Positions 24,594 to 38,111 of a DNA stretch of 64,000 bases are shown one piece after another. Within the stretch, counting starts at the first letter, position 1; each line of letters begins with the position of its first letter. The notes below the pieces were generated by a model. It did no database searches, was not told where the DNA came from, and was given only the letters and a program-made list of their open reading frames with translations. The stretch lies in contig NW_019217849.1 in assembly GCF_002571385.2 (NCBI RefSeq), positions 860,715 to 924,714 of the forward strand, read 5' to 3'. This DNA comes from Stylophora pistillata (Eukaryota). A program made the translations under genes and the position numbers.

Positions 24594-25345
24594 GATTTGA
24601 TGAAAACTTCTGCAACGAAAATCAGTGTACGTTGGGTGAACGAAGAATGGTAAACCTTACGTATATCAAACATATTTACTATGGGAGGAGTGGGTTAGTA
24701 ACTAATATTTAACTTTTGGACAGGAATTACGTTATTCCGCGAATACATCCACTTGTGACATGAAAACACACAAAGATATTAATTCAAAGAAAAATTTTAA
24801 ACTTGAATAATATAAATACAGAAAAAAAAGTCGGGCTTCATTCATTTACTGATTGCTACTTTCCCCTCCCCAGAAGAGAAAAATATTTTCATCTTAACTC
24901 TCATGAATATTCCACAAGACTTATAAAAAAACCAATCACGCAAAAAGTACCTTATTTGAGCTTTTCCGCCAAATGTTATTCGCGGATTGTATGAGGGGCC
25001 TTCGTACGAGACGCTTTCCCCCTTATTATTCAAATCTCACCCGTAAAATGGCAAGGTAATCACTCCAAGTGAACCTTCATGGTAATTTCCGAAAATTTCG
25101 CAAACAGAAGAGTCGAGTCTTCGAGTTGAGAAATAATCCAAAAAAGCTTTTACTAGAGATTGTTATGCTCTTCGGAATCTTCAAGTCGCCTTTAATTCCC
25201 CAGCCTCGCTTTGGTGCACAAAACTAGGTTCCAGACTCGGGCGTCTAAACATATAGTGAACCGTGAAGGCCTGAATAGAGTAAAAGTCACTCTCGGACAC
25301 TTTTAAGTTAATGCTCGAGTCTACGCAGTTCGTGAGCAAAATTAA

Positions 25346-28177
25346 ATGAGCGAAATGAATTCTGTTCTCGATTCTTCGGAGGAGAAAACAAATGGTACAA
25401 GGCTGTTACGACTGGTGATTGATGGAGGCACTTACGTTCTGAGAGAGTATTTACAGCGATGTGTTCTTCCGCCTGTAACGCTGCAAGACGTGCTTAACAA
25501 CCACAGAGGAAGGCTTGGGCACTTGAAATCAGTTAAGAAGAAAATTACCGATTTTCAGTGGAATCAGTTATTTCCTTCGACTGGTGACCCACCGGACCCT
25601 CAAACATTTGACATAACTCTTTTGCATCTGTTACTACGAGAAGTTTGCGGTTTGACTGTACCAGTTCCTAATGGATGGCACGAAATACCTATAGATACTG
25701 ATACCAGCGATGAAGCTAACATCGTCCGGATCAAGCTCCTTCGAAACAAGCTGTGTCATGGAAAATCCACCAACATTCCTAATGTCGAATTCCAAGATAA
25801 ATGGCAGACGATTGTTAAGTCATTGGTGGCATTGGGACTCAAACAAGAGGAAGTGGATCGCCTTAAAACTGAGCCTATTGATCATGACACTGAACGTCGA
25901 ATAAACGAAGAAGTAGAGAAGTGGAAAATGGACTTTGAACCACGGGTAGACAAGCTGGAGAATGACTATCTGACAGTAAAAGGAGAAATTTCTGCTATTC
26001 AAGCTTCTATTTCAGAGCAATCCATCAGTGAACATACCAACTGTCTTCCGGATAAGAATGATATCTTTGGACGATCCAAAGAGGTGGAACAAATCCTTAG
26101 TGCCATTCAAACTAAAAAAGCAGCGGCAGTTCTTGTAACTGGGGGACCTGGGTTTGGTAAAACAGCCGTGGCGATCGAAGTGGGTCATGAATTGGCATCC
26201 AACTTAAATGAAGATAGGATAGTTTTGTTTTGCCCCCTCAGATCTAAAGCAACTATTGGTGAAGTAGCCACTTCAATGATCCTTACTTGCAGTACAAGCC
26301 ACTCTCAACCACCAGCACATCCCCAACATTGGCTTCGAAATTGGAGCAAACAACAACAGAAGAAAGTTTTTTTAATTCTAGACAATGCTGATGATGTTTT
26401 AGAATCAGATGACCAAGCTGCATTTGTATCTATTTTAGGAGACATGAGAACTTTATCAAACTGTAAATTAACATTTGTTATCACTACCCGGAAAGTATTT
26501 TATGACCCCAATTTGCCCATGGAACCTGTGAGACTGTGCCCATTATCCCCTGATCATGCTGAAGAACTCCTCCTATCCAAAGTTTGTAATTCAGATGTGA
26601 AGCTGGAGCTCAACAAGACAGATGAATTGGTTCAACTTTGTGGCTGTGTACCTCTGGCCTTGTGTATTGTTGGTTCATTGCTTTCAGACTATCCTGAAGA
26701 TCAGCTCATTAAACGTCTTGAGGAAAAGCCATTGGATGTTCTCAGACAGGATGAAAGTGATACCAATTCTGTTGAAAAAGCAATTGACACTTCTTTCAAC
26801 TTTTTGGATAAAAATGAACAAAAGGCTCTGGTACTTCTGTCAGTTTTTCCTGGCTCATTCAGGAATGATGCTGCCCAAGCTGTTATTCAGGCAGGAGGTT
26901 GTCAAGGTGACCCTATATTCATTCTCCGTTCCTTGAAAAACCGGTCACTCATTGAGACACCAGCTTCATGCAGATATCAAATTCATCAATTTATTCAGAC
27001 ATTTGCAAAGAAGAAGATTGATCAAGCCAAGCATTTTCCATTCTTACAGCTGCAGGGGGAAAAAGTGGCCTGCATCCACTTTTTTTCCTGCCTAGTGGAC
27101 ATTGCCAATCGGTACTGGAGCAAAGACAAGTGCAAAGAGGCAATCCAATTGTTTAACATTGACAGGCACAACTTTGAGTATTTCTTTCAGTTCCTCCAAA
27201 GTCTAAGAAATGAGGATCCTCAAGTAATGGAAACTGTGGAGAAATTAATGAAGAAGATTTCCCAGACATGCATATTTTTAGAAATGTGTGTTCTTCCAGG
27301 TGTTTATATGGGGTACCTTAATGAACTTTGTCAGTTGTTGACATCACGCAAACAATCTGTCACTAAATTAGTGGAACTTTTGTGCCTTTTAGGGCTTGAA
27401 AATAGAAAAATAGGTAATCAAAATGAATACAAGAAGTTGATAGACAAGGCTGCAGACCTACACTCAAAACACTCTGAAGAATTTGACAATGAGAAGGTAT
27501 CAGAGGCTTTTTTTTGCAATAATTATGCAAAGTTCCTCTCTGAAATGAAAAGGTGTTCTGAAGCTGAAAAACAATTCGTTAAAAGTTTGAAGTTGTGTGA
27601 ACAACACATGGATTCTGTACAGAAAGGCATAAGTTTGCTTTATGCTGGACGAAATGACAACTGTCAAAATAAACGTGAGCTGGCAGAGGAAAAGTTCAAT
27701 AAGTCATTACACCTTTTTCAGGAGAATCTTGGCAATCACATTATGACAGCACTGCTTCTGAAGGAAATTGCAGATTTCCACCTCTTCCATGGTGAGAAGG
27801 GTCTAGGATCAGCTGCTGACCAACAAAAATCATTGAAACTTTATGAACAAGCTCTGGAAAGGATGGAAAGTGTTGGTATTAAAGACCAGAAAGAATGCAT
27901 TCTGCCACTCACCAACTTAGGACTGTGTTACCAATTGCAAGGTGAGATGGAAGGTGCAAAAAAATTATATCAAGCATCTCTAAGAATTGCAGAACAAGAG
28001 CTAACTGAGAATCATAGGTGGAAGATCTATGTGATGACTCAAATGGCCTCTTGGTATAAAAAAAATGAAAACCCAGAGAGAGCAATAGAGTTGAAAGAAA
28101 AGGCATTGACAATGAGTGACACACTTCAACTGCCAGATCACCAACCACCCAACAAATTTTTGCTACACAAAATTTGA
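25346..28177 (+). CDS. HEPN(DZIP3-like)-coiled coil-STAND NTPase-TPR protein, copy H1
   Basis: 943-aa single exon; FDITLL and RNKLCH (RxxxxH); FGR, Walker A GGPGFGKT, Walker B LILDNADD, ITTR, CGCVPLAL, IHQ (MHD-like); C-terminal TPR-like helices. Confidence 0.92.
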   Translation: MSEMNSVLDSSEEKTNGTRLLRLVIDGGTYVLREYLQRCVLPPVTLQDVLNNHRGRLGHLKSVKKKITDFQWNQLFPSTGDPPDPQTFDITLLHLLLREVCGLTVPVPNGWHEIPIDTDTSDEANIVRIKLLRNKLCHGKSTNIPNVEFQDKWQTIVKSLVALGLKQEEVDRLKTEPIDHDTERRINEEVEKWKMDFEPRVDKLENDYLTVKGEISAIQASISEQSISEHTNCLPDKNDIFGRSKEVEQILSAIQTKKAAAVLVTGGPGFGKTAVAIEVGHELASNLNEDRIVLFCPLRSKATIGEVATSMILTCSTSHSQPPAHPQHWLRNWSKQQQKKVFLILDNADDVLESDDQAAFVSILGDMRTLSNCKLTFVITTRKVFYDPNLPMEPVRLCPLSPDHAEELLLSKVCNSDVKLELNKTDELVQLCGCVPLALCIVGSLLSDYPEDQLIKRLEEKPLDVLRQDESDTNSVEKAIDTSFNFLDKNEQKALVLLSVFPGSFRNDAAQAVIQAGGCQGDPIFILRSLKNRSLIETPASCRYQIHQFIQTFAKKKIDQAKHFPFLQLQGEKVACIHFFSCLVDIANRYWSKDKCKEAIQLFNIDRHNFEYFFQFLQSLRNEDPQVMETVEKLMKKISQTCIFLEMCVLPGVYMGYLNELCQLLTSRKQSVTKLVELLCLLGLENRKIGNQNEYKKLIDKAADLHSKHSEEFDNEKVSEAFFCNNYAKFLSEMKRCSEAEKQFVKSLKLCEQHMDSVQKGISLLYAGRNDNCQNKRELAEEKFNKSLHLFQENLGNHIMTALLLKEIADFHLFHGEKGLGSAADQQKSLKLYEQALERMESVGIKDQKECILPLTNLGLCYQLQGEMEGAKKLYQASLRIAEQELTENHRWKIYVMTQMASWYKKNENPERAIELKEKALTMSDTLQLPDHQPPNKFLLHKI

Positions 28178-28372
28178 GATTTTAAGAGGTCACAGCCTAG
28201 CCAACTCCAGTGCTCATTTATTGGGGGTAAGTGAAAGAGGAGTACCAAATGACCTTGATTAAGTGCCCACACTCTCATGATCACCCTCCCCCATATAAAA
28301 GCCCACCCCTTAGGTCCTAATATCCAACAAGTGCCCCTCTCAAATAAGCTTACACCCTCCGCACCTCCCTTG

Positions 28373-28668
28373 TGGAGGTGCGGTGGCCTCATGGTTGGTG
28401 CACTCAACTCCGGATCGAGTGGTCCGAGTTCGAGTCCTGGATGGAGATATTGTGTTGTGTTCTTGGGCAAGACACTTTACTCTCACAGTGCCTCTCTTCA
28501 CCCAGGTGTTTAAATGGGTACCAGCAAATTTAATGCCTGGGGGTAACCCTGCGTTGGACTAACGTCCCATCCAGGGGGGAGTAGAAATACTCCTAGTTGC
28601 TTCATGCTACAGAAACCGGAGTTAAGTGCTGGCCTGATGGGCCTCTGGCTCGTAAACAGACTTTACCT
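28373..28668 (+). mobile_element. tRNA-headed SINE
   Basis: A/B-box head GGTGGCCTCATGG...GTTCGAGTCC; body CTTGGGCAAGACACTTTACTCTCACAGTGCCTCTC. Confidence 0.75.
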
Positions 28669-28818
28669 CCTGCTCCCTTACTTTCTAAAAAATAGTTATA
28701 ATAAATGGAAATCCTGTTTCTATTGCCACTTTATTTATAACTTGTTAAGCTTCAATTTCAGTGGTATCAGTACAGTTTCTTTTCCATTAAGTCACTTCCT
28801 GTTATTTCTATCTCCATA

Positions 28819-30401
28819 CAGTCAAACCTCGACTATCGGGACATCAATTATGTGGACTTTTTCTCTGGTCCCAATTTTTTCATGAATATTTATTAGTCAT
28901 GATCATATGGTTAGCCAAATGTTGCAAAATTCAACAACTTGCACATTTTTATTCAACAACTAATATTTATGCTTAACAAAATATATTTTTATTCAACAGT
29001 TTACGGTTATATTCAACATTTTATATTTATGTTCAACGACACGCATTTTCTTTTCATATTCAACCAAAATTATTTTCATTCAACAACAATATTTATTCAA
29101 CTTCAGTCCAAACTTTCTACTCAACAAAAACAATTATTCAACTTCTACCATGCATAGTTATTTAATGACATACCTTCTATTATGACCAAGTGTTCGAAAG
29201 TTCCCGGACATTCAAAATATCGTCATTCAACAAAATTCCCCGCCCCTACCCCCGAACTACCCCCAAACATGAAACCCATTCCTTCCAATACGAAGATTAT
29301 GGTTCATTTGTTTCTCCTGTTTACGCTTGAGGCGCCATGGATGATTTGTTACAACTGCGGGCCTCTTTTTCCCTTGTGAAAAGAAGACGAAGAAGAAGGA
29401 ACCGGGAACGATGCCCGGGGCGATAGAATTTGTCATCTCTCGGCTCGCACATCTTGCTGAACTTGCTATAAGGTCGCGCGTTCTCATTAACAACGAGGTA
29501 TTACTTCCCGATCGTTGAAGAGCGATCTCATTTCGAACACATTCTCCCACAATTTGTGTCAGTTCTTCCCTAACATCTCGCCCTGATCCGTCTTCCGAAA
29601 CCATCTCTATTCATGGGCGTTAATGGTCGGGGCACTGGGTCCGCAATACAGCGTATTTAACTGGGGACTGGACGGGGATTTTGTTGAATGACGATATTTT
29701 GAATGTCCGGGAACTTTCGAACACTTGGTCATATCAGAAGGTATGTCATTAAATAACTATGCTTGGTAGAAGTTGAATAATTGTTTTGTTGAGTAAAAAG
29801 TTTGGACTGAAGTTGAACAATTAATTTTGTTGAGTAAAATAAATATAGCTATTGAAGTTGAATAAATATTGTTGTTGAATGAAAATAATTTTTCTCGAAT
29901 ATGAAAAGAAAATGCGTGTCGTTGAACATAAATATAAAATGTTGAATATAACTGTAAACTGTTGAATAAAAATATATTTTGCTGAGCATAAATATTAGTT
30001 GTTGAATAAAAATATGCAAGTTGTTGAATTTTGCAACATTTGGCTAACCATATGATCAAGATCCATAGCCATATTCTTTTTAAAACTACGACATTGAAAA
30101 GTGAAGTAAAGGCGATGTTCTTCTTTAAGACAGACTGACTGACTTCAACATTTTAGGCCAATGTAAAAACATTTTTCATTAATTTTAATGGTTTATACAT
30201 TTGTGTAGAGGTATTCACATAGGACAGTGAAGATGTAGACCATATTTCTTTCACAATGATTTGTTAATGTCTTGTTTCATGATTTTAAAAATGTTGCTTT
30301 CTTAATTTAATCAGTTTTTGTTCACCATTAATGTTCATATTCTCGATTATCTGGACTATTTCATCTAGTCACAACAAGTTCAGATAATCGAGGTTTGACT
30401 G
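28819..30401. mobile_element. TA-flanked MITE interrupted by the IS3EU-like element
   Basis: TA-CAGTCAAACCTCGA...TCGAGGTTTGACTG-TA; related copy at ~46253-46663. Confidence 0.7.
28906..30052. mobile_element. Non-autonomous element with ~335-bp TIRs (IS3EU-like)
   Basis: TATGG...CCATA termini, 6-bp TSD TGATCA, internal ATTCAAC repeats. Confidence 0.85.
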
Positions 30402-31723
30402 TATTGACTTACATCTATGTGGATAATGTTGTGGTTTATTGTTACCCAAAATACAATTATAGTTTGTTGAAAGGAAAACTTAATAAGTGCCCCCCTTGGT
30501 CAAGCACCTACTTTCCAATAAGCACCCCACCTTTTCAAGGAAATATGGTATGTGGGTTTTAAGACTCAGTGAGGTAACGAGTCCTTCATTTTTCATTCAC
30601 ATAAATGTGAAAATGGTAGTGTTCAAGAAAACCCAAAACAGTTTTCTCCTTTTTGCTAATCCACTTCTTTTAATTTTTTTTTTCGCTGTGGAAATGGTAC
30701 TGGTTTTGATTTTACCCAAACATTATTAACTTAAGTTGGCTCTGAAGATACACAAAAATTTTTTTTTAATAACTTTGCAGAAAGGTTATTCATGGTTAAT
30801 AAATGCTCCTGACCAGTTAAATTCAGTGATGAAAGAAACTAGAAGTTACCTAACTCATTTGTGCCTTATTGAGCATCAAGCCAACACTAAGTGTCTTCTT
30901 AAAACCCTTAAACTCCCATGAGTGACCAAGACAGAATTTCTTCTTACAATAGCAATACAATATCAAGCAGACAATTAATGAGAATAAAGACAAATATCTA
31001 TTAGGGAATTATGATTTGATCCAATACCAAATTCTCTAAAGTAACTTGATAAGAATTATATGGAAGACAGCAAGGAGAATTTCTTAATTAGATCAAGGGA
31101 GTGACAGGGTTGGCATAGTGATCAGGGTGTAGTGATCACGGCATAGTGATCAGGGGGGAGCAGGGTTGGCGTATTGGTGAGTTTCAAGGAAACAAAAGAA
31201 AACTGTGGTAGTATTAACTGATCAATTAACCCAGGATAATTTGTTTTATCAACTGAGTTGATGTTATAAACTGACAACTGTAAAGAGTTTCCAAAGCTTA
31301 CATTTCAAGCGTTCACCCTTCGTCAGAGTGAATGGAATGGACCAATTATTAGAATTGGTTCAACATGATTGTTGTAACATGCTAGGTCTCTTCATCCTTC
31401 AAGTTATTTATACAATTTTATATACTTTTTACTGGCTAGGTTGTACAGCAGTGCTCTTTTAAAGGGTTAAATTTATAGTAAGTTTTACTTTTTTATTGAA
31501 ATTCTGAGATGTGGGGTTGTCATTTGGATCAGACATAAAAATTTGTCATCAAATGAAAATTAAATTTACCTAACTTGGTCAGTAACTGCTGATGTTGCTG
31601 GTTCTAATAGTAATAGTTGTTACTCTCACTTTATGTTAGGGTTGTGGTGTAGTAGAATCAGGGATCTGCAAATTTCCTTCATTTGTGCAGCTGCAGAGAA
31701 TATCTGTACCATCCTGTGTTAAT

Positions 31724-32429
31724 AGGGACCTTAAGCAAACCATGACAGTGATGGCAACAAGCACATGGCTAAACAAAAGATCTCACAGGTGTGGCTCAGC
31801 ACATGTGTTTTGAAACTTTGTACATTTCTTTGCTCCGCAAAACAACAATGTGAAATCACCAAATTTGTGTTGTCTGGGAATGGAAACCCAGAGAGCAAAT
31901 CAATTAAGCTTCCATTTAAAACCCAACGCTGCTTCCATACATTATGCTAAAGGTCTGGTGTAGAGGAAAAGGAGACAATCAACATATCCAGCCATTTGCA
32001 AAATTCTAACTGAAAGTATAAATTCTGTTCTTAATCGAGGTCTTCTTCAGCATTGCCTTCCTGGCTGCTTAAGGTCCCTAATATTAGGGACCTTAAGCAA
32101 ACCACGACAGCGACTACAAAGATGACGTGGAAAAACAAAAGATCTAATTGGCATAACAATTGCTCAGCACGTGCATTTTAAAACTTAGTACATTTCTTAG
32201 CACTCCTTTGCTAAACAACAACATGAATTCATCAAAACTATGACAGCAAATTTTTGAATTTCCATTTGGAACTCAATGCTACTTTTATATGTTATGTTGA
32301 GGTTGGGTTTTGGCACTGTATGAAATGATAAACACATGCAGCCATTTTTGAAATTCTAATTAAAAGTAGAAATTCATTTTTAAATCGGCGTCTTCCTTAG
32401 CGTTGCCGTCCTGACTGCTTAAGGTCCCT
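31724..32429. mobile_element. Two adjacent MITEs of one family (31724-32079, 32086-32429)
   Basis: TIR AGGGACCTTAAGCA...TGCTTAAGGTCCCT in both. Confidence 0.8.
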
Positions 32430-33492
32430 AATATTGAGAGGGACATGGTAGATGTATTATTTTAAGTGCAGTTTACTTGTAGAATATTTAATTTATTGAT
32501 GTGAAATGCAAGTTTAAAAAATTTAGCCTTCGATCCTAAGCTTTCTTATCTAGTTCTCAAATTTTTATACAAATTTGTATTTTATCTGTTTTAAAGGGAC
32601 ATTTTTTAAGTTTGATTTTATTACGGTAGTAGCTAGTATTGAAATAATACAGAAAGGAGTTGAAATGAAACAATTAGGTAAGTTACTACTGGTCAGTTAA
32701 TCTGTCAATCAATTGGAAACTTCAACATCCCTCCCCCCTGGGCAACCCCCAAGGCATTTGAACTTTTGAAGATTGGTTTGTTCAAAACTCATGCCCCTAG
32801 AGTAAAAATTGTGTTTAAATGCCCCACCCAATTTATGTGTGAACGGCAAAATCAGTGACCATCACTTTCTACACATTGACCAAGCTTTAAAACTTAGTCC
32901 TTGAAGACCTTCTCTTCTGAACCATTTGCTCACAAAAATGAACTGTCTACCTTGAACGCCTGCCATTTTCAAGAAATAACACTTGTATTCCACTGAGGCA
33001 CCCCCTGAATATGGTTAAAAGTCCACAGCATCCCGGGGGGGTTGTGGGGGGGGGATGTTGAAGCTTCAAGTTATAAGCACATGACTCCTGCATTAACCTC
33101 ATATGCCTTAACTTCAGTCTGCATATTCTCAAATTTAATCTTCTCTATAAATTAATTTTCATATTGACAAGAATTAATTTGTTTGACAACCAATAGCTTC
33201 TTTAGCTGTCAATCATTTCCTTTATTCTCACGACCTCAGTGTTTGCTTCACCAGTCATAGTGCAAAGAGAAACTAGATGCTGGTCAACCTTAGGGATTAA
33301 AGGATTTAATATCTTAATCCAACTTATGTTCTGTTTCAAAAAATATCCTTTACAGAAGTAAGGCAATAACATTTTGGTTAGGTTGTCTGTTGGTGGAGAT
33401 TATTTGTCATTTATGAGGCTCTTGAGCCTGCCTTTGACCTGTACCCCTTTAACTCCCATGAGTGAGCAAGACAATTTCTCCTTTTGATATCA

Positions 33493-33493
33493 A

Positions 33494-33533
<40 letters not shown>
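33493..33533. repeat. (AAT)n microsatellite inside a MITE
   Basis: ~13 AAT units. Confidence 0.9.
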
Positions 33534-35288
33534 TCAAAACAGTATCTAGCAGATAAGTGATGAGAATAAAGAAAAATACCAAATAGGGGATTATTAGTTG
33601 ATTCAATACCAAAATTTCCAAAATAACATAAAAAAACTGTATGGCAGAGAGTAAAGAGAATTTCTGTTGAGATCTTAGAAGTTAAAGAGTAATATGTTTC
33701 TTAATGTGTATTGAGAGTTTCCCAGAAATATCCATATCTTTCTTTTGAAGTGGGTCAGCAGAAATTCCAACAGGATTATAAACAGATGAGCTGTAGGAAA
33801 CCAAGAGACTTTAATGTTGAATGACAAGAAAAAAGACTGAAATTTGTGATAGGTGAAAGTTCTCAAAAGGCCTGAAACCTCTATGGAAAGATTATGGATA
33901 TTTTCTAGGAATTAATAAATGTAAATCTTCCAGGAGACCAAACTACCTTAAATGCTCTCTTTGACTCACATTCCAACATCACGAAAAAAGAAACTGGTAT
34001 AGAGCTTTTGCTTGGCAGCCACGTTGCATGGCAGGAACAATGAAAATATTTTGCATAAGAAAGAGAATTTTTTCCCATGGGAAAATAATCTATTGTTCCT
34101 GCCATGCAACATGGCTGCTGTGCAAAACCTCTATAGTGTAGTGTTTATGCCTAAATTTGTATGTGTTTGTAAAGTGTGGAAAATGTAATAAATTCTGTAA
34201 GAACAATCTTTATATTTTTGATTGCTTTTTCCAGATATAGTGATTGATAGCCCAGTAAATTGCATTTACACTGTCTAAAAGTTTATTGTACATCTGAATC
34301 TATTTGTGATGTTTGAGAAATGTACAATGAAAGTCTTAGGACAACATCCCTGCGTGGGCTCTTTAATTAAACATGTAGACTATGAGTAGTCTGTCCTTGT
34401 CAGCAAAGTTTGTGGTGCAAATAAAAAAAAATCAATGACAACAAAAATTGATGCTAGCACCCTATGAGAAGCTCTTGAAGTGAAAAAAAATTTCTCAAAG
34501 AAATTTACTTTGCTGTGCCTCTCACGCAGACATGAGTTTAGTGATCCCATCTTTTTTTTCAGCCAGTCTTACAGCAGTTAATTTATCTGGATTCACTTTT
34601 CTGAAAAGCAAGTTTTAAAAAATTTTTTACTGTATGTTCAAAGCTGTCTCAATTTCAAGACAATTAGAATCAATTCCATCAAACTAGTCTGTGGGTTGCA
34701 GTCACAAAAAACTACAGTTAATGGTGTGCTAAGAAGCTATAATATTGCTATGGCAACTTCTTGGGGTTATATAGAAAATAGGATTACAGTATATAGAGAG
34801 AAAACTCAAATTTCTACTGTTTAGAAGAAAAAAATAAAAAATTGTACTGATACCAATCCTTTCATGTATATTTTGTAAAAAATGAAGGAAACTTTTTTGA
34901 GTGTTCTTAATCACGTTTTGACGTATATGGCTCTAGACTCTTGGTTAGTAGCAGTGAGCTCAGGAAAGATTGAGAAGGAGGAATCATTGCCCCTCTAACT
35001 CTTTGCCCCCATACTTATTTCCTGTGCACCCAACCACTGTAATATTTAAAAGCACCAAGAACAGGCTAGCCACCTCGTAAAATCTTAACCCTTTAATAAC
35101 TCCCAGGAGTGATTCACTTGTAACTTCTCCCTTTAATGTCCATACATTATCCAGAAATAAGGTAATAAGAGCTAGTACTCATTTCAGTATTTAGGTATCT
35201 AATACCAAATTCTTGTCACTAATTAACAAGGAAACATGTAGCAGCCAGAGGGGAGAATCAACAATCAGATCTTGGTTAAGTTGAAGGG

Positions 35289-38111: not shown

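Follow-up and report, generated by a model that had tools for sequence, protein, structure and literature searches.

Probable recent gene conversion between two inverted HEPN-NB-ARC-TPR receptor genes of the coral Stylophora pistillata

How did one receptor gene of a coral cluster come to share an identical block with an inverted neighbour when, over its whole length, it is closest to another gene? The question arises in a 64,000-nt stretch of Stylophora pistillata DNA (assembly GCF_002571385.2, contig NW_019217849.1, positions 860,715 to 924,714; hereafter the window, in whose coordinates all positions are given), which holds four intact paralogs: H1 (25346..28177, plus strand, a single ORF of 943 aa), H2 (35289..38111, minus, 940 aa), H3 (42472..45273, plus, 933 aa) and H4 (59737..62562, minus, 941 aa), with lengths counted from the first Met. 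These genes encode a DZIP3-like HEPN domain, a coiled coil, an NB-ARC domain and tetratricopeptide repeats (TPRs). An earlier note on this DNA, made from the letters alone, had proposed that patchwork conversion shuffles modules among the four. We find that a recent ectopic gene conversion between H1 and H2 probably left a 362-bp patch, and that older exchanges likely explain other switches of affinity within the cluster.

The H1/H2 identity of about 360 bp described in the earlier note is exact over 362 bp, at 25802..26163 (plus) in H1 and 37309..37670 (minus) in H2. Past this tract there is one synonymous mismatch (26164/37308), followed by 83 identical bases to 26247/37225, such that the block measures 446 bp. 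Overall identity is 0.859 for H1 and H2 versus 0.903 for H2 and H4, which are indeed the closest pair, as had been noted. The identical run covers 81 consecutive polymorphic sites, whilst 20,000 permutations produced none longer than 21 (p 5e-5); when only third codon positions are counted, it spans 38 sites (p 5e-5). Furthermore, there are 0 differences at ∼80 synonymous sites (P 8e-5 at a synonymous divergence, dS, of 0.12, and 1e-10 at dS 0.30), whereas the tract differs from H3 and H4 at dS 0.26–0.34. As these synonymous sites are identical while H3 and H4 diverge, selection on the protein cannot explain the tract. Its start lies within the last HEPN helices (H1 aa 153) and its end at Walker A, in the P-loop (aa 273), so that it takes in the HEPN end, the coiled coil and the nucleotide-binding domain (NBD) up to Walker A. 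The earlier description of a tract from coiled coil to Walker A was therefore right about the end and not about the start, and the idea of shuffled modules does not suit a recent tract that begins mid-helix and stops in the P-loop. Between H1 and H2, dS is 0.30 in the HEPN domain as against 0.01–0.02 in the tract.

Downstream, an apparently older extension common to H1 and H2 runs over 26164..26399 (plus), the last informative site at which H1 equals H2. Within 26164–26369 there are six single-gene differences in 206 positions, each private to H1 or H2. This contrast with the core (0/362 versus 6/206, p 0.002, with boundaries set post hoc), together with the private nature of the differences, suggests that a recent event was superimposed on an earlier one. 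Inside the core, 78 bp of the coiled coil are identical in H1, H2 and H4 (25890..25967, plus; H4 62030-61953). The two genes also have 5' flank in common (25256..25345, plus; H2 38209-38121); the ∼30 bp reported before correspond to 26 exact bp (25320-25345 / 38146-38121) within ∼130 bp at 81 % identity. At five of the six tract residues that split H1/H2 from H3/H4, the homologous protein P0004 has the H3/H4 state, and the H1/H2 states are thus derived and common to both. Neither dS distances nor protein outgroups tell donor from recipient: in HEPN, H4 lies nearly as far from H1 as from H2 (dS 0.29 and 0.28), and the tract stands at 0.25–0.28 from H4. Transfer from H1 to H2 is hinted at, and no more than that, by five sites immediately 5' of the tract where H2 equals H4 and by an H4-like block 3' of it (B1, below).

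Whether the identical block is real DNA, rather than a collapsed or mis-polished assembly, was assessed with independent sequencing runs. H1 words are present in 20 of 24 listed runs, eight of which were compared with H2; the contig pieces examined, assembled from short reads, numbered 24 of 286 in one comparison and 29 of 61 in the other, and contigs from RNA runs may contain DNA. A contig end falls exactly at 37670, the first base identical to H1, in all three contig runs of one comparison (three study codes) and also in X7 of the other, and word depth in tract contigs is 1.6–2.8 times that of flanking H2-specific contigs of the same run. The H2 junction is bridged by contigs from X17 (37515-37743, 0 differences) and X19 (37421-37716, 1 difference); in X1 and X11 a contig of H2 flank enters the tract by 30 bases with 0 differences, one base under our bridging rule. 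Another contig, from X7, over 37641-37841 shows exactly the 19 differences expected of the H1 junction. An artefact might be suspected from the fragmented assembly (5513 contigs) with its gaps, from a block near the short-read insert size, and from the fact that six of seven contig runs have only the H1 letter at 37308. However, contigs from other runs branch exactly at 37670 with about double the word depth in the tract, the H2 junction is bridged with 0–1 differences, and the H2-private letter at 37308 is present in X11. Given this splitting and bridging in independent runs, we reject assembly collapse, which is largely refuted and to which we would assign hardly any probability. As position 37308 is the single H2-private base on which the right edge rests, and is seen in X11 only among the seven contig runs, 362 bp is a lower bound for a tract of at least 446 bp.

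Other samples carry private letters within the block (X15, 3/344; X19, 2/273; X17, 1 in ∼354), compared with 0/362 between the reference paralogs (Fisher p 0.10–0.18). Alleles may hence differ more than reference paralogs do, which is suggestive, and only that, of recurrent conversion. Additionally, an abundant H4-like contig in X17 shows 22 differences over 229 bp, four or more of which occur in none of H1–H4, indicating that other haplotypes carry versions absent from the reference.

Beyond the tract, affinities among the four genes change along their length, and H2 is the most mosaic of them. Its block B1 (36489..37043, minus) is near H4 (∼60937-61491) at dS 0.12, and so is its TPR tail (35289..36068, minus; H4 ∼59737-60516; dS 0.12). 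Between these lies segment C (36126..36421, minus; H1 27051-27343, aa 569-666), a helical region past the winged helix, in which H2 resembles H3 and Pocillopora-like proteins, and H2-H4 dS rises to 0.53. There are 22 synonymous differences between H2 and H4 at 58 sites in C versus 33 at 291 in B1 plus tail (p 4e-6). We counted 178 informative sites, 124 grouping H2 with H4, 31 H1 with H2 and 23 H2 with H3; they are clumped, with 139 adjacent same-type pairs where 94 are expected (p 1e-5). In four-taxon approximately unbiased (AU) tests the preferred tree is 12|34 for the tract, 13|24 for both B1 and the tail, and 14|23 for segment C, such that each of the three possible four-gene trees wins in some segment; as these segments were chosen after the data had been seen, the p-values are optimistic. 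A single tree for all windows, named in the earlier note as a refutation, was thus not what we found. Two shorter identical runs are significant over all sites: 71 bp between H2 and H3 within C (36334..36404, minus; H3 44158-44228) and 43 bp between H3 and H4 (44438..44480, plus; H4 60572-60530; p 5e-5). The strong signal in C is the separation of H2 from H4, an H2+H4 clade being rejected there (pAU 0.0013). In this segment H1, too, is parted from its relatives of the tail (H1+Pocillopora-like rejected, pAU 0.035), which leaves room for a reciprocal H1/H2 swap; alternatively, the history of this segment possibly derives from an unsampled donor. Judged by the structural model of H1, segment C roughly matches the helical unit after the winged helix, whilst the recent tract ignores domains. 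The genes that changed partners are H2 and, less surely, H1.

The position of H3 was evaluated against the best 120 of 587 scored homologous proteins, ∼70 of which are Pocillopora-like by similarity to P0092; 13 of the 120 were used in trees. H3 had been described as a mosaic, matching H2 in one part and H1 in the tail. Both matches exist, including the 71 bp shared with H2, and the peptides quoted in support were found in the genes, but the mosaic itself does not survive. The segment C tree (aa 569-670) has a clade of H2, H3 and Pocillopora-like proteins (support 99/98), and the tail tree one of H3, H1 and Pocillopora-like proteins (99/97), so H3 keeps the same relatives in both, and we rejected it as a conversion recipient. 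In the tail, P0004 has the H1/H3 state at 26 of 31 residues that split H1/H3 from H2/H4, making this match mostly ancestral, and H1+H3 alone as a clade is rejected (pAU 0.028). The H2/H3 match in C is old: its dS is 0.37, the similarity is mainly non-synonymous (p 1e-4) and the synonymous excess is not significant (p 0.14). The HEPN region of H3 (42472-42900) shows dS 0.9–1.1 and a 12-aa deletion, versus dS 0.3–0.6 in the rest of the gene, and its 5' end may accordingly derive from a more distant paralog.

How these patterns arose is a matter of inference, whereas the identity, its presence in independent runs and the segment-wise tree conflict, synonymous sites included, were observed directly. 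The tract has what interlocus conversion should leave: identity above background also at synonymous sites, a tree that differs from that of its flanks, and presence in real molecules. Repair of a break in one copy would have taken the paralog 9 kb away as template, after an older event at the same place that may have extended to about Walker B. Later homogenisation (or duplication) would have made H2 and H4 alike in the NB/winged-helix block and in the TPR tail, while a different history would have been kept or received by the helical segment that follows the winged helix. Exchange of this kind would recombine sensor and effector variants, although the recent tract itself only homogenises. The inverted orientation had been put forward as what permits conversion without deletion; gene conversion deletes no DNA in either orientation, and the longest of the blocks homogenised between H2 and H4 lie in direct copies.

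Several observations weigh against this interpretation. A double crossover, or an inversion-type crossover with later conversion, gives similar patterns. Third positions of segment C alone fail to reject other trees (pAU 0.09), the short H2/H3 and H3/H4 runs lose significance when only third positions are counted (p 0.29 and 0.06), and H1 and H4 are long-branched in C. The 5' flank pairs H1 with H2, whilst the 3' flanks pair H1 with H3 and H2 with H4. The ratio of non-synonymous to synonymous divergence (dN/dS), computed by segment, never exceeds 1 in any pair (0.20–0.67 in segments outside the tract, and ≤0.67 throughout), which lends no support to the earlier word 'diversifying'. Support for the block comes from short-read contigs; Logan contigs merge near-identical copies, with H4 or H1 letters in place of H2 letters in some, and could therefore hide single-base differences. 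Finally, the mosaics on other contigs and among homologs, presented below, are known from assembled sequence only.

Three further explanations were considered. Crossovers between the inverted, convergent H1 and H2 would invert the intervening DNA and swap 3' parts, and two such events could have swapped segment C. In keeping with this, H1 groups with Pocillopora-like proteins in the tail (97/93) and falls outside them in C, where H1+Pocillopora-like is rejected at the value given above, and H2 does the reverse (99/98 in C); both switches lie within ∼70-bp gaps (26983-27051 and 27343-27401); dS in C (H1-H4 0.36, H2-H3 0.37) resembles that of H1-H3 elsewhere (0.30–0.34); and collinear DNA lies downstream of H1 and H3, as expected from an old pair duplication. 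On the other hand, support for H1+H4 in C is only 54/12, a clade of H1, H2, H3 and Pocillopora-like proteins is not rejected there (pAU 0.47), the excess of H1-H4 synonymous differences falls short of significance (p 0.45), H2 and H4 must later have been homogenised on either side, and the 362-bp identity, being no swap, goes unexplained. We consider reciprocal exchange a tentative option, clearly less probable than conversion. A chimeric origin of H2 as a recent duplicate (5' half H1-like, 3' half H4-like), formed once and with no continuing conversion, agrees with its H1-type 5' flank and H4-type 3' flank and has a parallel in an intact crossover-type chimera of a second subfamily (G000:C779:6380-9211). 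The H1-H2 dS in HEPN is, however, far above that of the tract, and H2-H4 dS runs 0.12, 0.53 and 0.12 within the 3' part; three or more distinct ages would be required, and a single breakpoint with uniform divergence on either side is not observed, which renders this origin improbable. Less credible still, with only a slight chance of being correct, is purifying selection with rate variation and no exchange. All four genes conserve the stretch between Walker A and Walker B, and the H2/H3 similarity in C, mainly non-synonymous as detailed above, is common to Pocillopora-like proteins at 84–86 %, so that selection covers part of the H3 observations. It does not cover the H1/H2 tract, for which the third-position test and the identical synonymous sites refute it, nor does it fit the leap of H2-H4 dS from 0.12 to 0.53 and back.

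Mosaicism extends beyond the four genes. A second HEPN-NB-ARC-TPR subfamily on other contigs comprises 13 copies from 19 stretches, of which 10 were tested, and Bonferroni-significant identical runs occur in 6 of 15 and 3 of 6 pairs. The chimera mentioned above (L001) is an intact gene for 944 aa that joins two paralog types and passes from one to the other close to where the helical/TPR part begins; over its last 40 % it stands 9–22 % from one paralog type and 38–52 % from the type that matches its front. Our own PHI-type test (after the pairwise homoplasy index), which can be inflated by rate variation along the sequence, gave p 0.001 for 23 full-length Pocillopora-like proteins and also for the 10 of them from multi-member clusters. 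A set of 16 more distant proteins likewise reached p 0.001, with a small effect, and the 46 HEPN-less forms reached p 0.002. Block-wise sharing is seen in window profiles; the homologous proteins derive from short contigs, some of which may be chimeric assemblies.

The HEPN-less forms, 46 Pocillopora-like proteins of 703–739 aa (P0032-P0120), lack the HEPN domain and coiled coil, and their NB-ARC/TPR blocks match HEPN-bearing forms nearly exactly; they are possible sensor-only partners. As a speculative extension, which we hold to be doubtful at present, pocilloporid HEPN-NB-ARC-TPR receptors may form a recombining pool, with recurrent conversion at the HEPN/coiled-coil/P-loop junction, the arm region past the winged helix exchanged as one piece, perhaps reciprocally between inverted neighbours, and sensor halves reused with and without HEPN. 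Were this so, paralogs of the same haplotype could be closer to each other than alleles are, and the genes would amount to a system of germline receptor diversification in a group of animals for which conversion has been called very rare.

Gene conversion in clusters of NLRs (nucleotide-binding leucine-rich-repeat receptors) is textbook knowledge in plants and fish, and it is also known from fungal NLR clusters. A 'Type I' NLR cluster is marked by rapid exchange, extensive chimerism among paralogs and alleles, and diversifying selection in the sensor region. Such chimerism was found here among paralogs and alleles, the homologs coming from short, possibly chimeric contigs. Read-supported interlocus conversion in a coral NLR-like cluster is a known process in a new lineage. 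Among the systems nearest to it are Arabidopsis RPP8, for which domain-wise conversion has been described (PMC6771003), and 'Type I' plant NBS-LRR clusters, where, as in the coral, a few paralogs of ∼80–90 % identity exchange tracts and yield chimeric alleles; population data and balancing selection were analysed there, whilst the coral offers one reference haplotype plus contig fragments. Zebrafish NLR-B30.2 genes (PMC4852459) likewise show conversion acting on gene parts and different trees for different domains, but they number ∼400, have a NACHT-LRR-B30.2 architecture and are under positive selection in the sensor domain, unlike the four close NB-ARC-TPR paralogs of the coral cluster, in which no pairwise-segment dN/dS is above 1. 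For corals, the HEPN-NB-ARC-TPR-type architecture is described as abundant in passages of PMC10236652 and PMC8260672, the latter also reporting HEPN-NACHT expansions, and a HEPN family table is given in PMC3710099. Coral NB-ARC and TPR receptors with DZIP3-like HEPN (PMC10236652) have the same architecture and tandem clustering, and exchange among such genes is not analysed in the relevant passages of these three papers. A passage of PMC10236652 states that gene conversion is very rare in corals, to which the present tract is a counterexample, and one on coral fluorescent proteins leaves conversion possible but unclear (PMC4657232). Our literature search returned no paper on conversion among coral NLR-like genes, although supplements, which it did not reach, may list these genes. 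Since reads support the tract and mosaicism runs through the family, trees of whole genes, orthology assignments, the dating of duplications and the mapping of reads are unreliable for these genes, and part of the immune diversity of corals may lie in recombinant alleles absent from a single reference genome.

With respect to architecture, PF18738 (DZIP3-like HEPN; 105–168 bits), PF00931 (NB-ARC) and PF13424 (TPR_12) score above the Pfam cut-off in all four genes, and the HEPN R-x4-H motif and Walker A/B are kept in each; Rx4-6H is a hallmark of the HEPN family according to PMC3710099. In the AlphaFold model of H1 (mean pLDDT 80.7, pTM 0.54), HEPN helices extend as far as aa 175 and are followed by a long helix (182-222), the NBD (∼236-396), helical and winged-helix domains up to 558 and then helical repeats; the domain labels are read off the model. 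Pfam, motifs, model and STAND folds agree on an NB-ARC with Walker A, Walker B, helical domain and winged helix, and the Pfam scan and H1 model on a C-terminal TPR superstructure. By fold, the model comes closest to a STAND-TPR protein and to plant resistosomes (PDB 6mfv, 9h2l and 7jlv; E 2e-12 to 6e-7), at TM-scores of only 0.25–0.27 and 15–20 % identity, and none of the titles names a HEPN domain. The proteins are accordingly predicted, from sequence features, to be STAND immune receptors that would sense through TPRs, oligomerise through NB-ARC and act through a HEPN RNase.

Among 58 genome matches, only these four have identity >62 %, and no fifth close paralog was found there or in the 10 kb past the window, where 5.8 kb are N. 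H1, H4 and H3 are 100 % identical to gene models named Stylophora pistillata across the common N-terminal and central parts; an exact protein look-up for alleles returned no H1 or H2, and the H3 and H4 clusters consisted of gene models only. In raw RNA reads of X24, depth over the coding sequences is ∼6 or less, with H2 letters in five reads that share one start. DNA 3' of H1 is collinear with DNA 3' of H3 (62–84 % identity, partly dispersed repeats). This may go back to an old duplication by which H1 and H3, and likewise H2 and H4, became sisters in position, a minus-strand copy ahead of MCM5 having possibly been lost; as own-genome searches of the collinear intergenic DNA are dominated by dispersed repeats, support for the duplication is only moderate.

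A multi-exon MCM5-like gene lies between H3 and H4 (49723-58381, plus), with exon hits from 50324 to 58381 to MCM_N, MCM_OB, MCM, MCM_lid and MCM5_C. Its 5' end recurs as a partial copy (62810-63690, plus, 86 % identical) that stands head-to-head with H4 and stops at 63690. Within the gene, beside a 429-N gap, are about five 245-bp tandem copies (52973-54169, 98–99 % alike), related to inverted-repeat elements at 1633-1923 and 19469-20033. A perfect 172-bp palindrome within a repeat element (1837-2008) may be an assembly artefact or the end of a miniature inverted-repeat transposable element. Elsewhere, an intact 1038-aa ORF (10265-13381, plus) encodes TPRs and a CHAT (caspase-like protease) domain, and its 120-bp TPR repeats, 74–86 % alike, suggest internal repeat turnover. 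An exon with a PCC (DUF296-type) domain hit lies upstream of H1 (21306-21863, plus), and just beyond the window end a single 861-aa ORF (L020:378-2960, G000:C66:925092-927674) has a weak SAP-domain hit only.

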